Source of the DNA: a virus | Lineage: Duplodnaviria > Caudoviricetes | Strand: one strand, 5' to 3' | Virus record (IMG/VR): IMGVR_UViG_3300028886_000001 | Length of the DNA stretch: 64,000 nt | Shown here: one piece after another, positions 11 to 64,000 of the stretch | How the letters are laid out: every line of letters begins with the position of its first letter | How positions within the stretch are numbered: position 1 is the stretch's first letter | Program-made: the position numbers and the translations under genes | The notes under the pieces: generated by a model | Database searches by the model: none | Told to the model about the DNA's origin: nothing | Seen by the model: only the letters and a program-made list of their open reading frames with translations

Positions 11-2359
11 ATGGAATATATAACAGGTAATGGTACTCAAGTAAATAATATTAGTAATAATATTATGAATGCAATGCCAACACAACAACCTATGTATGGT
101 ATGCAACAACCAATGGTAAACAATTTCTATAATCCTATGATGCCACAATATCCACCAATGGGTAATATGATGCCTATGTATAATGGATATGGTATGCAAC
201 CTATGGTAAATATACCAATGATGCCTTACCAACCAATGGGTATGCAACAACCAATGCAACAAATGCCATCTGTTCCAGAACTAATGGCAAGAAGCAAAGC
301 TATGTTTGGAAATCCTTATGAGGATTTTAAGAAACATCCAGAAAGGTATGCAGATGTACCAAAAGCTGCAAATGGATTACCAGATCCATGTGCGTTAGCA
401 GAACGTAATGCACGTATGGTGCTTAATACTACACCATATGTAATGCCTAATTATATGGGAGGATTTAGAGCACCAATGCCACCTTACTATAACCCATATA
501 ATCCATATATGCAACAACCAATGATGCCAATGTTCAATCCAATGATGAACTCTGGTTATGGTAGAGATATGCTTAGCATATTAATATCAGCAGAGAGTCA
601 ACTTAATCGTAACAATATGGCAAGTCAAAACAGCTTTACTCAAAAGCTAATGCGTAATGCAATGGAGCTTGAGGGTATTGACAATGAAGAAATAAATAGA
701 AGGTTAAAACCAACACAACCTATCTATGGTCTTAATATACCAAAGCAACATAAGCCTTTGGACGAAAAAGCTCGTAGAAAGAGGGAGATGTTATTATCTC
801 AATTTGACATTTGGATACAAGCTAAAACTGAAGAAGCTTATAGACAATATAAAGCTAGTAGGAATGAACCAATGCCAGTTCTAGTTCCTTCAGTATCTCG
901 TGATTTTGCAGCTTATGTAAATTACGTTAATGAACCTGGCATAGGTTATAACGAATTTGCAAATAGATTAGCTGAAGTAAAACATGCAGAAATGCTTAGT
1001 AGTATTAGGAGGAAAGCCAAATATGAAGGCTCTCAGACTTTTATGAACAAAAAGCATATAAATAACAATTTCAGAATGGGATATAATCCTATATATGCTG
1101 ACAATATGGCAGCAATGTCTATGGTAAATAAACCCTTTCCAACTACATTAGATCCTTATAAGCAATATGCTGATCCTAGATCTGATGAAGAAATAAAAAA
1201 AGTAATATATTCAGATGCATCTGAATATAGTAATTGTTTAAGAAGTACTATACCAGATGATCAAAAACTTGTTAATGCAATCAATAATGCAGAACAAGAG
1301 CAAAGTGAAGCAGTAGATAGAATATCTACTGACTCTGAAGATAATAAGCCTTATGAAGAGGAACAACCAAAATCGGAAGAGACAAAGGAGGTAGAGACTA
1401 AGAAGCCTATAATGGATAATACTGAAAGTCTCAAATGTCTCAGGCGATTTGGATTAAATATAAATGAATATGAGGACTTCGATAACAAAACATTTGACTC
1501 ATTAAGAGGTCCTCGTGTTTGTGATGTAATAGATCCAGAAAGTATGGAGCTAATACGTAAAGCAGTAAAAAGTCCTAGCCCTCAGAAAAAACTTAAGATG
1601 GTTAAGGATATTATTACTGAAAGATGTCCTAGATTAAGATATTTCAATAGAGGCACTAATAGATTTGCCTTTATTGATATATTGGATGATTCATATATAT
1701 TTAAAATAGGACATACAATGGAAGGAGAAAATGCAACTAAGAATGAGTTTGCAACACAAGATATTCTTAAACCTTTCTGTACTAGAATATTTGATATCTC
1801 AGAAGATGGTATATTCTCTACTTGTGAGAGAGTACAAAGATATGAGAAGGATGCATATGCTGAAAGGTTTGATGAAATAAAATATGTGTTACAAGAAGTA
1901 ATGAGCAGATGTGTAGTAGATGATGCTGGATTACTAACTTTTAATAACTGGGGAATCAGAGAAGGTTTCGGTCCAGTAATATTAGACTATGCACGTTGTT
2001 ATAGACTTGTGGATAAATATGTAAGATGTAATCATAAGAAAGCAAATGGTGAGTATTGTGATGGCATTATGCAATTTGATACTACATTCTCATATTTTAG
2101 ATGTCCTAAGTGTGGTCAAACATGTCATATATCTATGGCTAGAGGTTTACAACAAATAGAATATCATAGTTTACACAATAAGTTCTTGGATTATTCTATT
2201 AGTAAAGCCATGACTGATATAAAACATTTGGATTTACACATAAAGGTAGTTAAAGGTGATGAAGTATTGTATGATACGGAAGAAGCCAAGAAGAAAAAGG
2301 AAGTATCAAACTCTAAGAGGATCAAGAAACCAGTAGAGATTGATATGAGTCAATACTAG
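11..2359 (+). CDS. Protein kinase-like protein with long M/P/Q/N/Y-rich low-complexity N-terminus and C-terminal zinc ribbon (may begin upstream of window)
   Basis: N-terminal ~190 aa of PMYGMQQP-type low complexity. Kinase-fold motifs in order: RGTNRFAF (G-loop), YIFKIG (Lys), TKNEF (helix C Glu), DDAGLLTFNNWG (catalytic loop), VILDYA (DFG-like). Then CNH..CDG..CPKCG. No in-frame stop before position 11. Confidence 0.7.
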   Translation: MEYITGNGTQVNNISNNIMNAMPTQQPMYGMQQPMVNNFYNPMMPQYPPMGNMMPMYNGYGMQPMVNIPMMPYQPMGMQQPMQQMPSVPELMARSKAMFGNPYEDFKKHPERYADVPKAANGLPDPCALAERNARMVLNTTPYVMPNYMGGFRAPMPPYYNPYNPYMQQPMMPMFNPMMNSGYGRDMLSILISAESQLNRNNMASQNSFTQKLMRNAMELEGIDNEEINRRLKPTQPIYGLNIPKQHKPLDEKARRKREMLLSQFDIWIQAKTEEAYRQYKASRNEPMPVLVPSVSRDFAAYVNYVNEPGIGYNEFANRLAEVKHAEMLSSIRRKAKYEGSQTFMNKKHINNNFRMGYNPIYADNMAAMSMVNKPFPTTLDPYKQYADPRSDEEIKKVIYSDASEYSNCLRSTIPDDQKLVNAINNAEQEQSEAVDRISTDSEDNKPYEEEQPKSEETKEVETKKPIMDNTESLKCLRRFGLNINEYEDFDNKTFDSLRGPRVCDVIDPESMELIRKAVKSPSPQKKLKMVKDIITERCPRLRYFNRGTNRFAFIDILDDSYIFKIGHTMEGENATKNEFATQDILKPFCTRIFDISEDGIFSTCERVQRYEKDAYAERFDEIKYVLQEVMSRCVVDDAGLLTFNNWGIREGFGPVILDYARCYRLVDKYVRCNHKKANGEYCDGIMQFDTTFSYFRCPKCGQTCHISMARGLQQIEYHSLHNKFLDYSISKAMTDIKHLDLHIKVVKGDEVLYDTEEAKKKKEVSNSKRIKKPVEIDMSQY

Positions 2360-2377
2360 GCAGAGATGCCTAGTATT
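2352..2377 (+). terminator. Intrinsic terminator hairpin overlapping stop codon
   Basis: AATACTAGGCA-gaga-TGCCTAGTATT followed by CTTTTATT. Confidence 0.75.
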
Positions 2378-2393
2378 CTTTTATTACAGCGAT

Positions 2394-2405
2394 AACACAT
2401 AAGTA
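2394..2405 (+). promoter_or_regulatory. AR9-type late promoter AACA-N6-TA
   Basis: AACA CATAAG TA upstream of RBS of 2457. Confidence 0.6.
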
Positions 2406-2456
2406 TACAATACTTATGTATTATATATTCAAATAATATTAAAGGAGAGATTAATC

Positions 2457-2969
2457 ATGAAGATTAAAATAATAAGAGCAAATGGAGAGTCAACTACTGT
2501 TGATAGTGAAAAGAAAGGAGAACCTACTTTCAATGAAAAAGCTAGGTGGAAAAAACAAAGCAATACTCATTTTACAGTAGTAGCTGATTTACCTAATGGT
2601 AACGGTCTTAATAATGATCTAAAGAAAGAAGTAACAGAAAAAGTTATCAATAAAGATCAAGACGAGCAACGTTCTGCTAATAATAAGCAGAATGAAAGAA
2701 AGAGGGACAATAGATATCCTAATGGTAAAAAAAAAGAACAAAAAGAGGAAAACTATAAAATAAATAAAGACGGTATAATAGTACCTGAAGAAGAAAAAGA
2801 AGTTGTAGAAGTAAATAAAGACTTAGCTGATAAATTAGTTGAGTCTATGACTACTTCTGATGAGGATAAAGACATCATGACAAAGAAGATCATGGAACAA
2901 TATGGTTTAGAACCTGGAAATGATCAATCTGGTCTAGAAGATGAAGAAGATCCAATAAATGAATATTAA
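2457..2969 (+). CDS. Hypothetical highly charged, probably disordered protein
   Basis: AAGGAG RBS; K/E/N/D-rich. Confidence 0.75.
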   Translation: MKIKIIRANGESTTVDSEKKGEPTFNEKARWKKQSNTHFTVVADLPNGNGLNNDLKKEVTEKVINKDQDEQRSANNKQNERKRDNRYPNGKKKEQKEENYKINKDGIIVPEEEKEVVEVNKDLADKLVESMTTSDEDKDIMTKKIMEQYGLEPGNDQSGLEDEEDPINEY

Positions 2970-2983
2970 AGGAGTGATATAAA

Positions 2984-3640
2984 ATGACAGGGAGAATATC
3001 AGTAACAACAGATATTAATGTAGTATACGATAATATTTCTTCTTGTAAGGTAATTACTATAGTAGATGTAGATAATATTACTAGTGAGCTTAAAGCTATA
3101 TCTACTATAGCTCCTTTTATGCTTCCACCTTATGAAGTTGTATCTAGAAAACTATGTGATGAAGATGAATCAGTGTTTTCTATATTATACTCTCAATACT
3201 TACATCAAGGTGAACCTTTAGAGTTTATAGCTATATTGTATAAAGCTCTATTACAAGGAGTAAATATATTATTATATTTCCCTTCAGATTATGAGCTATT
3301 TATAAACGAGCTATTATTTATATTGGCAAATGAATTTGGATTCTGGTTTGATGGAGACATAGGATTAAATATGGGATATATAGGTTTTATAAATGTATTA
3401 TTATATTCATATGATCTAATATCACCATATGAATTATTATGCTTCATTAAAGATGTATCAGAATTACCAAGAGAAGTCATTGGTAAACTATCTGAAGAAC
3501 TATTCTTACCGTATGAAGTAATGACATATGAACAGATAGTGCAGTATATTAATAATATGCTTCATAAGCAAAGAGCATCTGATGGTAGTATACTAAGAAA
3601 TATATGGAGGGTAGATAATAATGCTAGTATTCACAAATAG
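2984..3640 (+). CDS. Hypothetical protein, possible DUF488-like fold, paralog of next gene
   Basis: AAGGAGTG RBS; LPP..F...Y..Y......EF...L....G.N.. pattern shared with 3621..4085. Confidence 0.65.
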   Translation: MTGRISVTTDINVVYDNISSCKVITIVDVDNITSELKAISTIAPFMLPPYEVVSRKLCDEDESVFSILYSQYLHQGEPLEFIAILYKALLQGVNILLYFPSDYELFINELLFILANEFGFWFDGDIGLNMGYIGFINVLLYSYDLISPYELLCFIKDVSELPREVIGKLSEELFLPYEVMTYEQIVQYINNMLHKQRASDGSILRNIWRVDNNASIHK

Positions 3641-57327: not shown

Positions 57328-58206
57328 ATGAATAGAATATTACATTTATTCGAATGGAGACTAAACGATATTACGAAAGAATTATCAGATATAAAGAATC
57401 AGGGATTTAATTGTATTCAGATATCTCCAATACAACCTTTAAAAGAATACACATATGCATGGTGGTCATTATATCAACCATGTGATTTAACTATTGGTAA
57501 TAGTTGGATAGGTAGTCAAGGAGACTTATCTTTACTATGCAATAAAGCAGAAAACTATGGGATAAAAATAATAGCAGATGTAGTAATATGTCATATGGCT
57601 GGAAAGAACAATGGGGAATTAAAACCACATGAAATGGTGAATAAAGAATTATTAAATAATAAAGACTATTGGTTAGAGCCAAAGATGATAAATGATTGGA
57701 ATAATAGATATGAAGTTACACATTATTCTATGGGACTACCAAGATTAAATATATACAATCATGAAGTACAAGATAAGATAATCAAATTCTTAGATGGTTT
57801 ATATGCTAGTGGGGTTAAAGGGTTTAGAGTAGATGCAGCAAAGAATATAGCATTACCACAAGAAGGATGCGATTTCTATACTAGAGTAATGGATAGATAT
57901 AAAGATCTATTTGTATACTCTGAATTAATATTTACAGATAGACATCTATTAGATGAATACTCTAAGTATACAATGATCCTTACTGAGTCAGAATGTGTAG
58001 ATAATAAGAAAATAGCATATTTTGAATCGCACGACTCTTTCTTAGATGATACTTTAGGATATACAAAGAATATGGATCAGAATAGAGTAATAGATGAATA
58101 CGTAATAAAGTGTAAGTATTTTGATAATACTTTGTTTTATAATAGACCTAATACTAGAATGTATATGGATGGTAGAGTAAAAGCTGCTAATCTAAGGTAT
58201 ATATAA
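57328..58206 (+). CDS. GH13 alpha-amylase (catalytic domain only)
   Basis: ILHLFEW, IQISP, WWSLYQP, IADVVICH, GFRVDAAK, YSEL, ESHD: catalytic D/E/D intact; late promoter 57297..57308. Confidence 0.9.
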   Translation: MNRILHLFEWRLNDITKELSDIKNQGFNCIQISPIQPLKEYTYAWWSLYQPCDLTIGNSWIGSQGDLSLLCNKAENYGIKIIADVVICHMAGKNNGELKPHEMVNKELLNNKDYWLEPKMINDWNNRYEVTHYSMGLPRLNIYNHEVQDKIIKFLDGLYASGVKGFRVDAAKNIALPQEGCDFYTRVMDRYKDLFVYSELIFTDRHLLDEYSKYTMILTESECVDNKKIAYFESHDSFLDDTLGYTKNMDQNRVIDEYVIKCKYFDNTLFYNRPNTRMYMDGRVKAANLRYI

Positions 58207-58243
58207 ACATGTATATAAATAAAATTATAAAGGAGTGATAATT

Positions 58244-59194
58244 ATGTTACCAATAACAAGAAGAATTAGCCCATACAATCATTCGTCTGGAAATGACATA
58301 ACTTACATAGTTATGCATTATACTGGTAATGACACTGATAGTGCTGCTGGTAATGCTAATTATTTTAACGGCGGAGATAGACAAGCATCAGCACATTACT
58401 TTGTAGATGATAATTCTATATACCAAGTAGTCGAAGACTATAATGCTGCATGGCATTGTGGAGATGGGCATGGTAAATATGGAATTAGTAATCATAATTC
58501 TATAGGAATTGAAATGTGTTGTAAGAATGGTTCTATTACTACTACTACAGAGAATAATGCTATTGAATTAGTAAAATACTTAATGAATAAATATGGTATT
58601 GATACTAATCATGTAGTAAGACATTATGATGCTAGTAGAAAGATATGTCCAAATTGGCAAGCTAATAACTGGTCTAGATGGACTAACTTTAAGAATAAAC
58701 TAAATGGACCTTCTGTTCAAGAGGAGGATGATGAAATTATGGATGTTAAAAATGTATTTTGCGATGCTTGGTACTTACAAGCATATCCAGATGTAAAAGC
58801 TGCTACTGAAAGAGGAGAACTAAGTGCATATGAACACTATAGAGATTATGGTAAAGCAGAAGGAAGAAAACCTAATTGTGGAATTCCTAGTGGTTGGAAT
58901 GAAGCATATTATTTAGCTAATAATCCTGATGTAAATGCTAATGTATCTAGTGGTACAGGATTCGTTTCTGGATTACATCATTATCTAATGGTAGGTTGGA
59001 GTGAAGACCAAAGAAAAAATACTTATTTAAATCCTCCTGCAAGTGCTTCTAAAGAAGAAAGTGATGAAGGAAAAGAAACATGGTATAGAGTTGTAGCTGG
59101 TTCTTATAAAGAAAGAGCTAATGCAGAAGCAGAAGTTCAAGCTTTAAAAGATAAAGGTGTAGATGGTGTATTTTTAACTGTATTTAAAAAGTAA
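58244..59194 (+). CDS. Endolysin: Amidase_2 + two YL..(Y/N)PDV repeats + SPOR-like domain
   Basis: IVMHYTG, SAHYFVD, AWHCG, SIGIEMC, VVRHYD..KICP; WYRVVAGSYKERANAE; late promoter 58206..58217. Confidence 0.9.
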   Translation: MLPITRRISPYNHSSGNDITYIVMHYTGNDTDSAAGNANYFNGGDRQASAHYFVDDNSIYQVVEDYNAAWHCGDGHGKYGISNHNSIGIEMCCKNGSITTTTENNAIELVKYLMNKYGIDTNHVVRHYDASRKICPNWQANNWSRWTNFKNKLNGPSVQEEDDEIMDVKNVFCDAWYLQAYPDVKAATERGELSAYEHYRDYGKAEGRKPNCGIPSGWNEAYYLANNPDVNANVSSGTGFVSGLHHYLMVGWSEDQRKNTYLNPPASASKEESDEGKETWYRVVAGSYKERANAEAEVQALKDKGVDGVFLTVFKK

Positions 59195-59230: not shown

Positions 59231-59338
59231 AACATATCATTGAAATTTTATATATAAAGGAGGCAAAGACATATGACTGATACAATTAGAAATGTAAGAT
59301 TAAAAGACAAAGATGGTAATATATTACACCCAGAAATT
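59231..59338 (+). repeat. Fibre-cassette head, copy 1 (late promoter + RBS + MxDTIxNVRLKDxxGNILHPEI)
   Basis: aacatatcattgaaatt(t)tatatata..ggagg plus coding start shared with 61680 and 63166. Confidence 0.9.
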
Positions 59339-59905
59339 GCAGTAGAATATTCATCATCAGCAAATAGTAATAAGCCATTAGCTAATAAGACTATTACTGC
59401 ATTATTATCTGAAAAAGTAAATGCTATTTCCCAAGCAGACTATAATACATTACAAAATAATAATGGTGTAGATTCAACTGTTCCTTATTTGGTGATTACA
59501 GATGAAACATTAGGTACAGAAAAAAAAGCATTATTATATTATAATAATCAGCTTTATAATTTTGCTAATCCATCTACTGAGAGTAATGAAATACAACAAA
59601 AAGTATCTTTAAATGCTACTAAAAATAATAGTATAGAAATAGCTACTGCTGACAGTAATAATAAATTAATGATAGATAATTATAAATTTATCAAAGCTAC
59701 AGAGAATACAACTTCTATTGTAAAGAAATTTAATAATAGTAATAAGGATAATTTTATATATAATCCAGATGAAATAGATTTTAATAATAACAATACTTTT
59801 GTCAAAAATAAATATGTCTATGATGTAAAGATAAATAGTGATGGATTATATGAGAGTGAAGTTATAAATAAAAGTGATTTTTTAGAAATAAGCGAGGTGA
59901 TATAG
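59273..59905 (+). CDS. Tail fibre anchor-module protein (paralog 1)
   Basis: Shared N-terminal MTDTIRNVRLKDKDGNILHPEI; ISQADYNTL...YLVI motif. Confidence 0.7.
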   Translation: MTDTIRNVRLKDKDGNILHPEIAVEYSSSANSNKPLANKTITALLSEKVNAISQADYNTLQNNNGVDSTVPYLVITDETLGTEKKALLYYNNQLYNFANPSTESNEIQQKVSLNATKNNSIEIATADSNNKLMIDNYKFIKATENTTSIVKKFNNSNKDNFIYNPDEIDFNNNNTFVKNKYVYDVKINSDGLYESEVINKSDFLEISEVI

Positions 59906-61225: not shown

Positions 61226-61576
61226 ATGGCAAAACAAGTAAAAATCTGGGATAAAGTTTCTCCTATAAATGGAGTTCCTGCAGAAAAAGTTACTCCTAAT
61301 TGGACTAACGTAGAAGAAGTAGTACTTATATTAGATGAAAATGGAAGAGTTCTAGAAATGAATGATCCAGCAATCTTAAAACAAAACTTAGGTGTAACTG
61401 AAGATAAAACTGCACAAGAAATTGGTGAACTTTGGGTTGCACATGAAGAAGAAATGAATAATAAGCAAGCTCAAGATAAAATTACAATGGAAGAGTTAAA
61501 AGCAAGACAAGATGAAACTGATGCAGCTATTGCTGAATTAGCAGCTGCTATTGCTGGAGACAACACACAAGCATAA
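61226..61576 (+). CDS. Putative tail fibre assembly/chaperone (XkdW-like)
   Basis: Small protein with C-terminal coiled coil ending DAAIAELA; late promoter 61185..61196; context. Confidence 0.5.
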   Translation: MAKQVKIWDKVSPINGVPAEKVTPNWTNVEEVVLILDENGRVLEMNDPAILKQNLGVTEDKTAQEIGELWVAHEEEMNNKQAQDKITMEELKARQDETDAAIAELAAAIAGDNTQA

Positions 61577-61588
61577 TACAAAAATAAA

Positions 61589-61616
61589 ACAGTATAGGGA
61601 TAAAACCCTATACTGT
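61589..61616 (+). terminator. Intrinsic terminator
   Basis: ACAGTATAGGG-ataaaa-CCCTATACTGT plus T tract. Confidence 0.8.
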
Positions 61617-61679
61617 ATTTTTTATTGTCCATTATATTAAATTATACTAAACGATATACAGATGTTGATGGTGTGTCTC

Positions 61680-61787
61680 AACATATCATTGAAATTATAT
61701 ATATAGAGGAGGTAAAGAAAGATGAGTGATACAATTAAAAATGTAAGACTTAAAGACAAAGATGGTAATATATTACACCCAGAAATT
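61680..61787 (+). repeat. Fibre-cassette head, copy 2
   Basis: Same promoter/RBS/N-terminal block as 59231 and 63166. Confidence 0.9.
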
Positions 61788-63119
61788 ACAGTAGATGTTG
61801 AGCTTAATTCTACTTCTGAGAATCCTGTACAAAATAAAGTTATCAATGCTAAATTAGATGAGGTTTTTCAATCTGTCAGTAATGGTAAAACACTGTTAGA
61901 AACAGCTATTACTGACAAAGGTTCATCTGTTTCTAAAGCTGGAGATGTTGCTACATTTGAAGAATTAAAGACTGGTATAGATAATATAAGTACTGGCGTT
62001 TGTGAATTAAATATATTTACTCAAACAACAGAGCCTGCTAATAAAAAAGGTCTATGGTTAAATACTGATAGTACCTTTAACAGGATAGAAAATTATGCTG
62101 AAGCAACTTATGATAATTTTGCTCAAACTATAAACTATCTTGGATATAATAGTGGATTAGCATTTCAATATTCTAAATCTTGTCAAGTAGGGAAATATTG
62201 TTATATCATTGGTGGAAATGGTATAGCAAAAAGAAATTTAAGATATGATATGGAAACCAAAGAAACATCAACAATGGCAGAACTACCTATGGCTCTAGAA
62301 AAGGGTACGGTTTGTACAGATGGTACATATATTTATATAATGTGTGCATCTGATGATCATAAAACAAATTATAAGTATGATATTGCAGCAAACACATATA
62401 CTACTCTACCAAATGGAGTTAATATAGATAGACCTTCATCACAATGTATTAATAATAAGATATATATATTTGGAAACAATGATGATGCTTGCTATATTTA
62501 TGATTTATCAACAAATACAACAACAAAAATGCCTAATATAACATATAACAATATGATAAATAATAGATCTATAACTGTTGGAGATTGTATATACATCATG
62601 TTTGATTATACTAATACAGGTGCATCATATAAATATGATACTACTACAAATACACTTACAGCATTATTAGCCTCTCCATTAAAACATTCTGGAGATGAAG
62701 CTGCTATATTTGAAAAGAATGGTTATATATATGTATTCTCACATGATAATACAGGTATTAATGGGTCTGCAATAAATGTAATATACAGATATGATATAAA
62801 AAATAATAATTATAAAAAACTAAATAAGACAACAACAAATGATAGAGTTTCTTCTGTTCATTCATATTGTTTCTATAATGAAGTATTAACTTGTTTCGAC
62901 GATTTATCAACTTCTTATTCTACTTTTAATCTGAATAAAAATTGTTTATATTTAGATAAATCTGAAGAAACTAATTCTGCATTATTAGTAGAAACACCTT
63001 ATGATTATTTGAATAAAGAAGAAAAGTTTAAAAACTGTTTCTTAACAGATAGTAATGCTTCTAGGGTTTCTTGTGACTCTTATATAGGCAATGGTACTGA
63101 ATGGACTAAAATATCATAA
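61722..63119 (+). CDS. Tail fibre/receptor-binding protein with C-terminal Kelch beta-propeller (paralog 2)
   Basis: Shared anchor, VDVELNSTSENPVQNKV, EVFQSVSNGK; Kelch blades (CYIIGG..RYD, IYIM..YKYD, IYIFG..YIYD). Confidence 0.8.
   Translation: MSDTIKNVRLKDKDGNILHPEITVDVELNSTSENPVQNKVINAKLDEVFQSVSNGKTLLETAITDKGSSVSKAGDVATFEELKTGIDNISTGVCELNIFTQTTEPANKKGLWLNTDSTFNRIENYAEATYDNFAQTINYLGYNSGLAFQYSKSCQVGKYCYIIGGNGIAKRNLRYDMETKETSTMAELPMALEKGTVCTDGTYIYIMCASDDHKTNYKYDIAANTYTTLPNGVNIDRPSSQCINNKIYIFGNNDDACYIYDLSTNTTTKMPNITYNNMINNRSITVGDCIYIMFDYTNTGASYKYDTTTNTLTALLASPLKHSGDEAAIFEKNGYIYVFSHDNTGINGSAINVIYRYDIKNNNYKKLNKTTTNDRVSSVHSYCFYNEVLTCFDDLSTSYSTFNLNKNCLYLDKSEETNSALLVETPYDYLNKEEKFKNCFLTDSNASRVSCDSYIGNGTEWTKIS
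61862..61936 (+). promoter_or_regulatory. Candidate -1 programmed ribosomal frameshift signal (G_GUU_UUU + H-type pseudoknot), copy 1
   Basis: Slip site 61862-68; S1 61874-85/61906-17; S2 61896-905/61927-36; -1 frame stop TAA 61880-82. Confidence 0.75.
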
Positions 63120-63123
63120 TTAC

Positions 63124-63153
63124 ATACCATGATATCATATGATATCATGGTAT
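63124..63153 (+). terminator. Terminator, perfect 30-bp palindrome
   Basis: ATACCATGATATCATATGATATCATGGTAT then CTCTTTT. Confidence 0.75.
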
Positions 63154-63165
63154 CTCTTTTGTCTC

Positions 63166-63271
63166 AACATATCATTGAAATTTATATATAAAGGAGGCAA
63201 TTAATATGAGTGATACAATTAAAAATGTAAGACTTAAAGACAGAACTGGAAATATACTACATCCAGAAATT
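63166..63271 (+). repeat. Fibre-cassette head, copy 3
   Basis: Same promoter/RBS/N-terminal block. Confidence 0.9.
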
Positions 63272-64000
63272 ACAGTAGATACAGAACTTAATTCTACATC
63301 TGAAAATCCAATACAAAATAAAGTAGTAAAGGCAGCATTAGATGCTGCATATAATCCTACAAATAAAGAGGATTTAAATAAAATAGGGCATGATGAAAAA
63401 GGAAATCTTACTTATAATGAAGTAGTAGTCGGTGGAAGTTCTATTACAGTAGATGCAGAACTTAATTCTACTTCAGAGAACCCTGTGCAGAATAAAGTTA
63501 TCAATGCTAAGTTAGATGAGGTTTTTCAATCTGTCAGTAATGGTAAAACAAGAATAGAAACAGCTATTACTGACATGGGAGGAACTGTTTCTAAAAGTGG
63601 CAGTGTAGCTAAAATAGGAGAATTAATCTCTGGTCTTGCTACAGTAGCATCAGCACAAGCGAATATATTTGTTCAAGAAGCTGAACCAGAAACTAAAAAT
63701 GGTTTATGGTTAAAGACATCTAATACTTATGACGATATAGTAAATATAAGTGGTACAGAAAACACTATTACTTATACTAAAATGACAGACATACCACGTA
63801 ATTTTTGTAATGGTTCTGCTGTAGCTGTTGGTAATGATATATACATTCTTGGTGGTAATGATAGTCCAACTATTAATTATAAATATGATACCACTACTAA
63901 TACTTATACACAAATGACAGGTATACCATATGGATTTTATTATGGTTCTGCTATAGCTATAGGTAATGATATATATTTATTAGGTGGAGCTGATAGTAAT
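63206..64000 (+). CDS. Tail fibre/receptor-binding protein with Kelch repeats (paralog 3; runs off window, not in ORF track)
   Basis: Manual translation MSDTIKNVRLKDRTGNILHPEITVDTELNSTSENP...EVFQSVSNGK...AVGNDIYILGG...YKYD...AIGNDIYLLGG; AAGGAGG RBS; frame open to 64000. Confidence 0.88.
   Translation, partial: MSDTIKNVRLKDRTGNILHPEITVDTELNSTSENPIQNKVVKAALDAAYNPTNKEDLNKIGHDEKGNLTYNEVVVGGSSITVDAELNSTSENPVQNKVINAKLDEVFQSVSNGKTRIETAITDMGGTVSKSGSVAKIGELISGLATVASAQANIFVQEAEPETKNGLWLKTSNTYDDIVNISGTENTITYTKMTDIPRNFCNGSAVAVGNDIYILGGNDSPTINYKYDTTTNTYTQMTGIPYGFYYGSAIAIGNDIYLLGGADSN
63520..63593 (+). promoter_or_regulatory. Candidate -1 programmed ribosomal frameshift signal, copy 2
   Basis: Slip site 63520-26; S1 63532-43/63564-75; S2 63555-63/63585-93; -1 frame stop TAA 63538-40. 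Confidence 0.75.

Follow-up and report, generated by a model that had tools for sequence, protein, structure and literature searches.

Known -1 frameshift signals and a fibre-gene cassette

In dnaX, which encodes tau and gamma of DNA polymerase III, a -1 frameshift takes place on a slippery A-site codon, a 3' structure lies about 5-6 nucleotides (nt) downstream, and an early stop in the -1 frame gives a truncated isoform that has its N-terminal assembly domain in common with the full-length protein. An RNA element with a comparable predicted layout, hereafter the cassette, is present in a tail-fibre gene of a 64,000-nt stretch of Caudoviricetes phage DNA (the window; IMG/VR record IMGVR_UViG_3300028886_000001). 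The cassette is most likely a real, widespread and apparently undescribed -1 frameshift signal that truncates fibres at the junction of anchor and tip. It works like dnaX and is not a member of the dnaX type. The dnaX signal comprises the heptamer A_AAA_AAG, an upstream Shine-Dalgarno-like stimulator and a stem-loop, none of them related in sequence to the cassette, whereas the cassette mostly offers a slippery tetramer only, has a two-stem pseudoknot, and occurs in a virion fibre gene with Kelch repeats.

Insertion sequences (IS) such as IS3, IS911 and IS1 resemble the cassette in their use of A_AAG, U_UUY and A_AAA tetramers or heptamers and, in IS3, of a pseudoknot at a short spacer (PMC4066793). 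Their signals extend the protein into an OrfA-OrfB fusion, whereas the cassette would terminate translation after four codons. The heptamer of the window copy, G_GUU_UUU, is also found at the nsp2N site of PRRSV, whose -1 product is truncated, and at the 2B* site of cardioviruses (PMC7618472). Those two sites are stimulated by proteins bound 10-14 nt downstream and are used by eukaryotic ribosomes; the cassette instead has an RNA pseudoknot 5 nt downstream, and G_GTT_TTT is one of many variants in its family. Phage frameshifts, including the lambda G/GT-type chaperones, T7 gene 10A/10B, and the capsid and tail extensions of Listeria and Lactobacillus phages, are programmed -1 (or +1) shifts and resemble the cassette in affecting late structural genes and, as predicted for it, in setting a fixed ratio of two isoforms, but all of them extend the protein, and none lies in a fibre gene at an anchor/tip junction. 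A G/GT tail chaperone gene is also placed between the tail tube and the tape measure and has a long -1 extension, whereas the -1 frame of the cassette closes almost at once. The cassette belongs to none of the dnaX, IS3, phage G/GT and capsid-extension types.

Full-text searches returned no description of the cassette, and none is present in the accessible parts of a 2016 recoding review, which contain no case in a fibre, or in a 2025 frameshift-prevalence preprint. No Rfam match fell on the cassette when 61500-64000 was searched up to E = 10, and a slippage annotation is absent from all genome records inspected. Searches for overlapping open reading frames (ORFs) are blind to the cassette because it lies inside one continuous ORF. 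Truncating frameshifts of this kind, which create no overlapping ORF, are missed by standard frameshift finders and annotation pipelines and can be revealed by synonymous constraint.

The cassette in the window

The source record is a phage sequence of 213,202 bp with direct terminal repeats, from a bovine gut sample; the window corresponds to the minus strand of its bases 1-64000. A first-pass annotation, made from the sequence alone, had proposed a pseudoknot-stimulated -1 shift that truncates a Kelch-tipped fibre of 465 amino acids (aa) to a product of about 53 aa. The ORF, its Pfam matches and the -1 reading agree with this description, and the slip site, the spacer, both stems, the loops and the -1 stop all lie exactly where they had been placed, correct to the base. 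The features of the gene and its cassette are as follows.

61722..63119, + strand: tail-fibre gene, an ORF of 465 aa with an N-terminal anchor, the motif EVFQSVSNGKTLLETAITDKG and a C-terminal Kelch beta-propeller
61862..61868, + strand: slip site G_GTT_TTT, in frame, from GAG GTT TTT
61865-61868, + strand: A-site tetramer T_TTT, the slip core conserved across the family
61869..61873, + strand: spacer CAATC, 5 nt, read from the sequence
61874..61885, + strand: stem 1 5' arm TGTCAGTAATGG, which contains the -1 frame stop
61880..61882, + strand: -1 stop TAA, the fifth codon after the shift, inside stem 1
61886..61895, + strand: loop 1, 10 nt, with Gly and Lys codons that vary freely in relatives
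61896..61905, + strand: stem 2 5' arm TTAGAAACAG, abutting the stem 1 3' arm
61906..61917, + strand: stem 1 3' arm CTATTACTGACA, forming 12 bp with TGTCAGTAATGG, one of them G-U
61918..61926, + strand: loop 3, 9 nt, read from the sequence
61927..61936, + strand: stem 2 3' arm CTGTTTCTAA, forming 10 perfect bp with TTAGAAACAG

The region of the motif matches PHROG 26419 ('tail fiber protein'), and Pfam identifies Kelch repeats in the protein. At the sequence level the window copy has the topology of an H-type pseudoknot, with loops of 10, 0 and 9 nt. Duplex energies are -14.9 kcal/mol for stem 1 and -10.4 kcal/mol for stem 2, and the nested minimum free energy of 61855-61945 is -26.7 kcal/mol (z = -3.26). 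When the gene was randomised synonymously with local codon usage, 22 pseudoknot pairs were reached in 5 of 2000 sequences and 94% formed no pseudoknot at all. The -1 frame reads TCA ATC TGT CAG TAA, and the predicted -1 product has 49 + 4 = 53 aa and ends in ...EVF-SICQ.

The slip motif, the 5-nt spacer, the covarying pseudoknot and the fixed stop probably constitute a -1 frameshift signal that ends in early termination. The cassette sits at the junction of an N-terminal anchor or shaft and an exchangeable C-terminal tip, in a large family of phage fibres and spikes. With GTT-TTT in the P and A sites, a ribosome would meet the base of a 22-bp H-type pseudoknot at the mRNA entrance, 5 nt downstream, and the pseudoknot, with stem 1 stacked on stem 2, would resist unwinding. 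In a fraction of ribosomes the A-site tRNA-Phe (tRNA-Lys in other members of the family) could then re-pair one base back on T_TTT (A_AAR), and the shifted ribosomes would read four -1 codons and reach the stop inside stem 1. The predicted output is a full fibre of 465 aa together with a 53-aa anchor-only protein; the short form of a paralog described below would have 111 aa.

Conservation in relatives and the readings it supports

The strongest evidence that the cassette did not arise by chance is the comparison among its relatives. IMG/VR and one genome per GTDB species were scanned with a pattern that allowed all codons for S-V-S-x-G-K-N15-A-I-T-D, so that codon choice was not pre-selected. 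The scan yielded 173 distinct family members, with GC contents of 26-62%, and 43 chance matches to unrelated sequences, one of them a Marinobacter protein, that were used as controls. Codons at paired sites are close to fixed in the family (TCT in 168 of 174, GTC in 172, AGT in 173, ACT in 168, and GAC in 158 with GAT in the other 16), while every synonym occurs for the unpaired Gly, Lys and Ala codons of the loop. The 43 controls use all codons at every position. Synonymous variation is suppressed at paired and slip-site codons and nowhere else, and the adjoining unpaired codons vary. The first-pass annotation had named free synonymous variation at the slip site and stems as one of the results that would refute it; what these relatives have instead is near-fixation.

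At the position equivalent to Phe49, all 173 members have a homopolymeric codon: TTT in 131, AAA in 30, AAG in 11 and TTC in one. The codon in front always ends in T when TTY follows and always in A when AAR follows, which places a slip tetramer 5 nt before stem 1 in every member (T_TTT, A_AAA, A_AAG and T_TTC, respectively). The amino acid before the slip codon differs and its codon follows suit: Leu is CTT with Phe (95 members) and TTA or CTA with Lys (29), Val is GTT with Phe and GTA with Lys, and Ser, Cys and Thr are encoded by TCT, TGT and ACT. Alternation of Phe and Lys at a single position is odd for a protein and, on these comparisons, is what would be expected of a homopolymeric A-site slip codon. 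The heptamer G_GUU_UUU to which the first-pass annotation had drawn attention is present in the window but occurs in just 23 of the 173 relatives; the conserved element is the A-site tetramer, T_TTT or A_AAR. The canonical heptamer T_TTA_AAA/G is found in 16 members. The tetramers A_AAG, U_UUC, U_UUU and A_AAA are four of the six that shift in Escherichia coli with a pseudoknot placed 3' of them, at 0.26-5.6%, and they predominate in IS1 and IS3 elements (PMC4066793).

The spacer is 5 nt in every aligned relative, in an alignment without gaps, and the usual range for -1 frameshifting is 5-9 nt (PMC7618472). The stop that the first-pass annotation expected to be conserved is the fifth -1 codon in 173 of 173 members, as TGA in 80, TAA in 72 and TAG in 21, and 28 members have a +1 frame that runs for more than 34 codons without a stop. 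No upstream element is conserved in the family alignment (A2).

A structure of this kind could have some other task, such as a programmed pause at the anchor/tip boundary for co-translational trimerisation, a part in mRNA stability or processing, or an operator bound by protein or RNA, and frameshifting would then be incidental. The pseudoknot itself is very well supported by pairing and covariation of its stems, it always marks a boundary between protein modules, the N-terminal region forms an intertwined trimer in a model, and most of the slip motifs are weak tetramers, all of which would agree with such a task. A pause element should avoid slippery codons, however, and the slip tetramer is present in all 173 members, created by synonymous choice, at a constant 5-nt distance, with Phe and Lys alternating, and is kept in remote sequence classes. 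We therefore consider this explanation unlikely.

Both stems are maintained by complementarity. Across 105 sequences, 96.7% of stem 1 cells are paired, compared with 27-63% when the partners are slid by 1-3 columns, and pair 25/54 of this stem switches between AU (54), GC (37) and GU (13). Stem 2 has no fixed sequence: its 5' arm occurs in 104 different sequences with complementarity kept, and a helix score of at least 7 is reached by 83% of members with their own downstream sequence as against 17% with that of another member (Mann-Whitney p = 5e-62). When the register was fixed by an amino-acid criterion, double changes were seen at five of nine stem 2 pairs, and a comparison with relatives L005 and L006 gives three double changes at third codon positions in stem 2. 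Of the 143 relatives with a scored stem 2, 117 have a 5' arm that ends at the stem 1 3' arm or one base before it, and the distance from the stem 1 3' arm to the best stem 2 helix ranges from 1 to 41 nt with a mode of 12 nt. The covariation that the first-pass annotation had asked for is thus found in both stems. In addition, G-U pairs are common, and a covariance model scores relatives at 60-83 bits on the sense strand and 17-27 bits on the antisense strand. Because of the frequent G-U pairs and the far higher sense-strand scores, the structure can be assigned to the mRNA. Covariation and sense-strand specificity are, as judged from sequence, the properties of a stimulatory structure in a -1 frameshift signal.

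Homologues in phages of Clostridioides difficile have other amino acids and other stem sequences at the site and keep the architecture. In CD2301 and phiMMP01 the site is GCT TTT with spacer CAAGA and a 12-bp stem (AGCCGATAGTGG/CTGCTATCGGCT), and the -1 frame reads TCA AGA AGC CGA TAG. A stem 2 partner was sought for this class and not found, which leaves a hairpin only. In phiCD27 gp29, phiMMP02 and phiCDHM19 the site is G_GTT_TTT with spacer CAAAG, followed by a 13-bp stem with one bulge (TGGAGTTAATGCT/AGCATTAAACTCCA) and a 9-bp stem 2 (TGTAGTAAC/GTTACTACA) immediately next to the 3' arm of stem 1; the -1 frame reads TCA AAG TGG AGT TAA. The 5-nt spacer is kept in both the CD2301 and the phiCD27 classes, and bases 7-9 of the stem 1 5' arm form the -1 stop in each of the three sequence classes. 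An internal control is provided by a relative (L278) whose protein contains a second copy of the motif, EVDTGK...AITYKG, encoded without a slip site and without a stem; because of this copy, the RNA features cannot be a by-product of the peptide.

The same block could have been kept at the DNA level, as a near-invariant joint at which tips are swapped by homologous recombination, with the hairpins a by-product. This accounts well for the position of the cassette exactly between shuffled modules, for its occurrence across myophage-type clusters, jumbo phages and a tectivirus, for gut contigs of other phages that match the window over 61856-61922 only, and for window paralogs that are identical in the cassette and different on both flanks. 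Recombination requires identity rather than complementarity, however, and the many stem 2 sequences are complementary all the same, while stem 1 is fully replaced in CD2301 and phiCD27 with its pairing retained. The tolerance of G-U pairs, the sense-strand bias, the slip tetramer and the -1 stop would also be left unexplained. As the main cause of conservation a recombination joint is quite improbable, and it may be a secondary benefit of the cassette rather than a rival to frameshifting.

Chance or codon bias in an AT-rich genome, where SVSNGK...AITDKG can be encoded as inverted repeats, is very improbable indeed: the V-S-N and I-T-D codon sets are compatible as reverse complements and about 6% of the synonymous randomisations give a pseudoknot of at least 14 pairs, but the observed 22 pairs arise in just 0.25% of them, relatives spanning 26-62% GC retain an identical set of rare codons, unrelated proteins that fit the amino-acid pattern do not, and the stems covary.

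Several further mechanisms were considered and rejected. Termination-reinitiation through a UAAUG or UGAUG overlap at the -1 stop fails because there is no ATG when x is AGT, GAA, GAG or GAC, and because the +1 frame that would be opened is not conserved. A -2 shift could take place on xTT_TTT and is impossible on xTA_AAR, so it is not the mechanism of the family. The runs, of only 4-8 bases, do not fit transcriptional slippage, and no T-run that would indicate an intrinsic terminator follows the stems on either strand.

The one known meaning of a slip motif, a fixed spacer, a covarying sense-strand pseudoknot and a fixed stop in combination is an early-terminating -1 frameshift, and it is from this combination that we infer the shift. 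The core proposal of the first-pass annotation, a pseudoknot-stimulated -1 shift that truncates the fibre, is supported by every sequence test that it had named. Several points weigh against frameshifting. Support for it is comparative throughout. The nested minimum-free-energy fold of the window copy contains stem 1 and an alternative local 5-bp helix in place of stem 2. P-site re-pairing would be poor in most members (G/A/C_CTT_TTT), and the short product may be rare because tetramer-only sites shift at just the low rates cited above for E. coli, even when the pseudoknot is strong. Since the -1 stop and stem 1 share bases, selection on the stop is inseparable from selection on pairing. In some members the predicted short product would have only about 30-50 aa, which is small for a structural role. 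Finally, the one metatranscriptome run consulted (X24) had no cover over the cassette, and this has no bearing on expression.

Distribution, module boundaries and the predicted short product

Within its proteins the cassette is 12-984 aa (median 147) from the N-terminal end and 64-744 aa from the C-terminal end. Comparison of protein pairs found 384 with the N-terminal part alone in common, 19 with the C-terminal part alone and 35 with both. The tips encoded 3' of the cassette include Kelch, WD40/PQQ and SBBP/NHL propellers and a phage-fibre repeat, and most others are without a Pfam match. A 40-residue profile of the motif recovered 4381 clusters at E <= 1e-3 among 1.84 billion representatives of clusters at 50% identity. 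The genome records name Clostridia and Bacilli as hosts. Cultured carriers of the cassette include Paenibacillus phiERICV, Clostridium phiCT9441A and Makh22, and Brevibacillus Abouo and Davies. The genes that carry it are annotated as fibre or structural genes and lie beside baseplate, holin and lysin genes. The cassette occurs in myophage-type tail clusters, in jumbo phages and in a tectivirus. In C. difficile phages the cassette genes (L145 and L273-L276) are all annotated as 'hypothetical protein'. The gene is followed in phiMMP01 by a small ORF, a holin and an amidase, and is preceded in phiCD27, phiMMP02 and phiCDHM19 by an annotated 'rhodanese-related sulfurtransferase' and a small ORF.

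The tectivirus is Lysinibacillus phiG2 (L268; Tectiviridae, tail-less), in which the cassette has the slip site T_TTA_AAG. Its gene, at 2262-3029, encodes a 255-aa protein with the cassette after a heptad-repeat N-terminus, and the cassette has a 5-nt spacer and a stem 1 identical to that of the window. Because phiG2 has the full cassette, the module crosses the realms Duplodnaviria and Varidnaviria. At least four cassette genes are present on some jumbo-phage contigs, represented by L093, L104, L113 and L123 (IMGVR_UViG_3300045988_127368, 256 kb) and by L131 and L136 (259 kb). L093 has two cassettes, one of them with A-V-T-D and a weakened stem 1.

A tandem protein repeat in P0001 and P0006 (L277 and L279) is formed by the motif's second half, ..LAxAIT[ND]KGVSTxxxxxFxxMAxNI, which recurs two or three times. 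The later units have neither the FQSVSxGK half nor a slip site, and the RNA signal is on the first unit only. Repeats of the motif are limited to P0001, P0006 and P0008, and a search of the family ORFs that had been retrieved gave no others.

In pig, bovine and other gut metagenomes, otherwise unrelated phage contigs align to the window gene over 61856-61922 only, a block that starts with the slip site and closes with the 3' arm of stem 1; one of these contigs has a word depth of 729. A shared block of this extent fits a mosaic joint. A blastn search of the gene against GenBank phages and a tblastn search with 47 aa gave no match, while longer or looser queries did. Matches in Enterococcus phages of the EFDG1 type were false, as the similarity is confined to CAA CTT GTC CGT AAT GGA AAA and there is no 3' arm.

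If the shift occurs, thousands of fibre and spike genes in phages of Bacillota encode a second, unannotated protein. The phages affected would include those of C. difficile, Clostridium tetani, Paenibacillus larvae and Brevibacillus, gut jumbo phages and a tectivirus. Natural tip shuffling uses an anchor/tip joint whose exact place is given by the cassette, which could be useful in laboratory engineering of the host range of phages and tailocins. Its pseudoknots form a compact family, and their hundreds of natural compensatory variants could serve in the study of frameshift efficiency in Gram-positive hosts.

Our best guess for the short product is that it occupies, or co-assembles at, the docking and trimerisation sites of the anchor and so sets the number of tips per fibre or baseplate. 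In a structural model, the 49-aa fragment forms an intertwined trimer with two 110-aa chains at a score of 0.80, against 0.00 for the best control; of 78 solved complexes 51 attain this mark, and of 108 mismatched pairs 2 do. The model runs agreed in at least 99% of contacts, and the partner chains had predicted local distance difference test (pLDDT) values of at least 89. Co-assembly in the model suggests that anchor-only chains could form their own trimers or mix with full chains. The reason given in the first-pass annotation for the truncation, a fixed ratio of chains that leaves one propeller on each trimer, does not hold in general, since the tips are of many kinds and the short form would be a minority product at most of the slip motifs. 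It may apply to propeller-tipped members; the very short products of some others speak against any wider validity. A broader and more tentative possibility, which we hold to be rather doubtful, is that the cassette is a portable valency controller that moves with tips among myophages, jumbo phages and tectiviruses. Anchor-only chains in trimers or sockets would then tune the number of displayed tips, often monomeric beta-propellers, and stem 1 would double as a recombination joint.

A second copy of the cassette lies in a paralogous fibre gene at the end of the window, with the following features.

63520-63593, + strand: second cassette copy, in the paralogous fibre gene 63206..>64000
63520-26, + strand: slip site of the second copy
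63532-43 with 63564-75, + strand: stem 1 of the second copy
63538-40, + strand: -1 stop TAA of the second copy, with a predicted short product of 111 aa
63555-63 with 63585-93, + strand: stem 2 of the second copy, 9 bp

The covariance model scores this copy at 74.4 bits on the sense strand and 17.4 bits on the antisense strand, and in the whole phage genome it finds only the two copies, in the 61722..63119 gene and its paralog. The two are identical within the cassette and differ on both flanks.

The paralog overruns the end of the window, which is the first base of the record, and has an ELNSTSENP.QNKV module twice before its cassette. Three consecutive genes (59273-59905, 61722-63119 and 63206->64000) have in common an N-terminus of about 25 aa, M[ST]DTI[KR]NVRLKD..GNILHPEI; the first of them has this N-terminus and no cassette. 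Just upstream of this fibre array are a 292-aa ORF (57328-58206) and a gene for an N-acetylmuramoyl-L-alanine amidase/endolysin (58235-59194; PHROG 1794, E = 2.8e-44).

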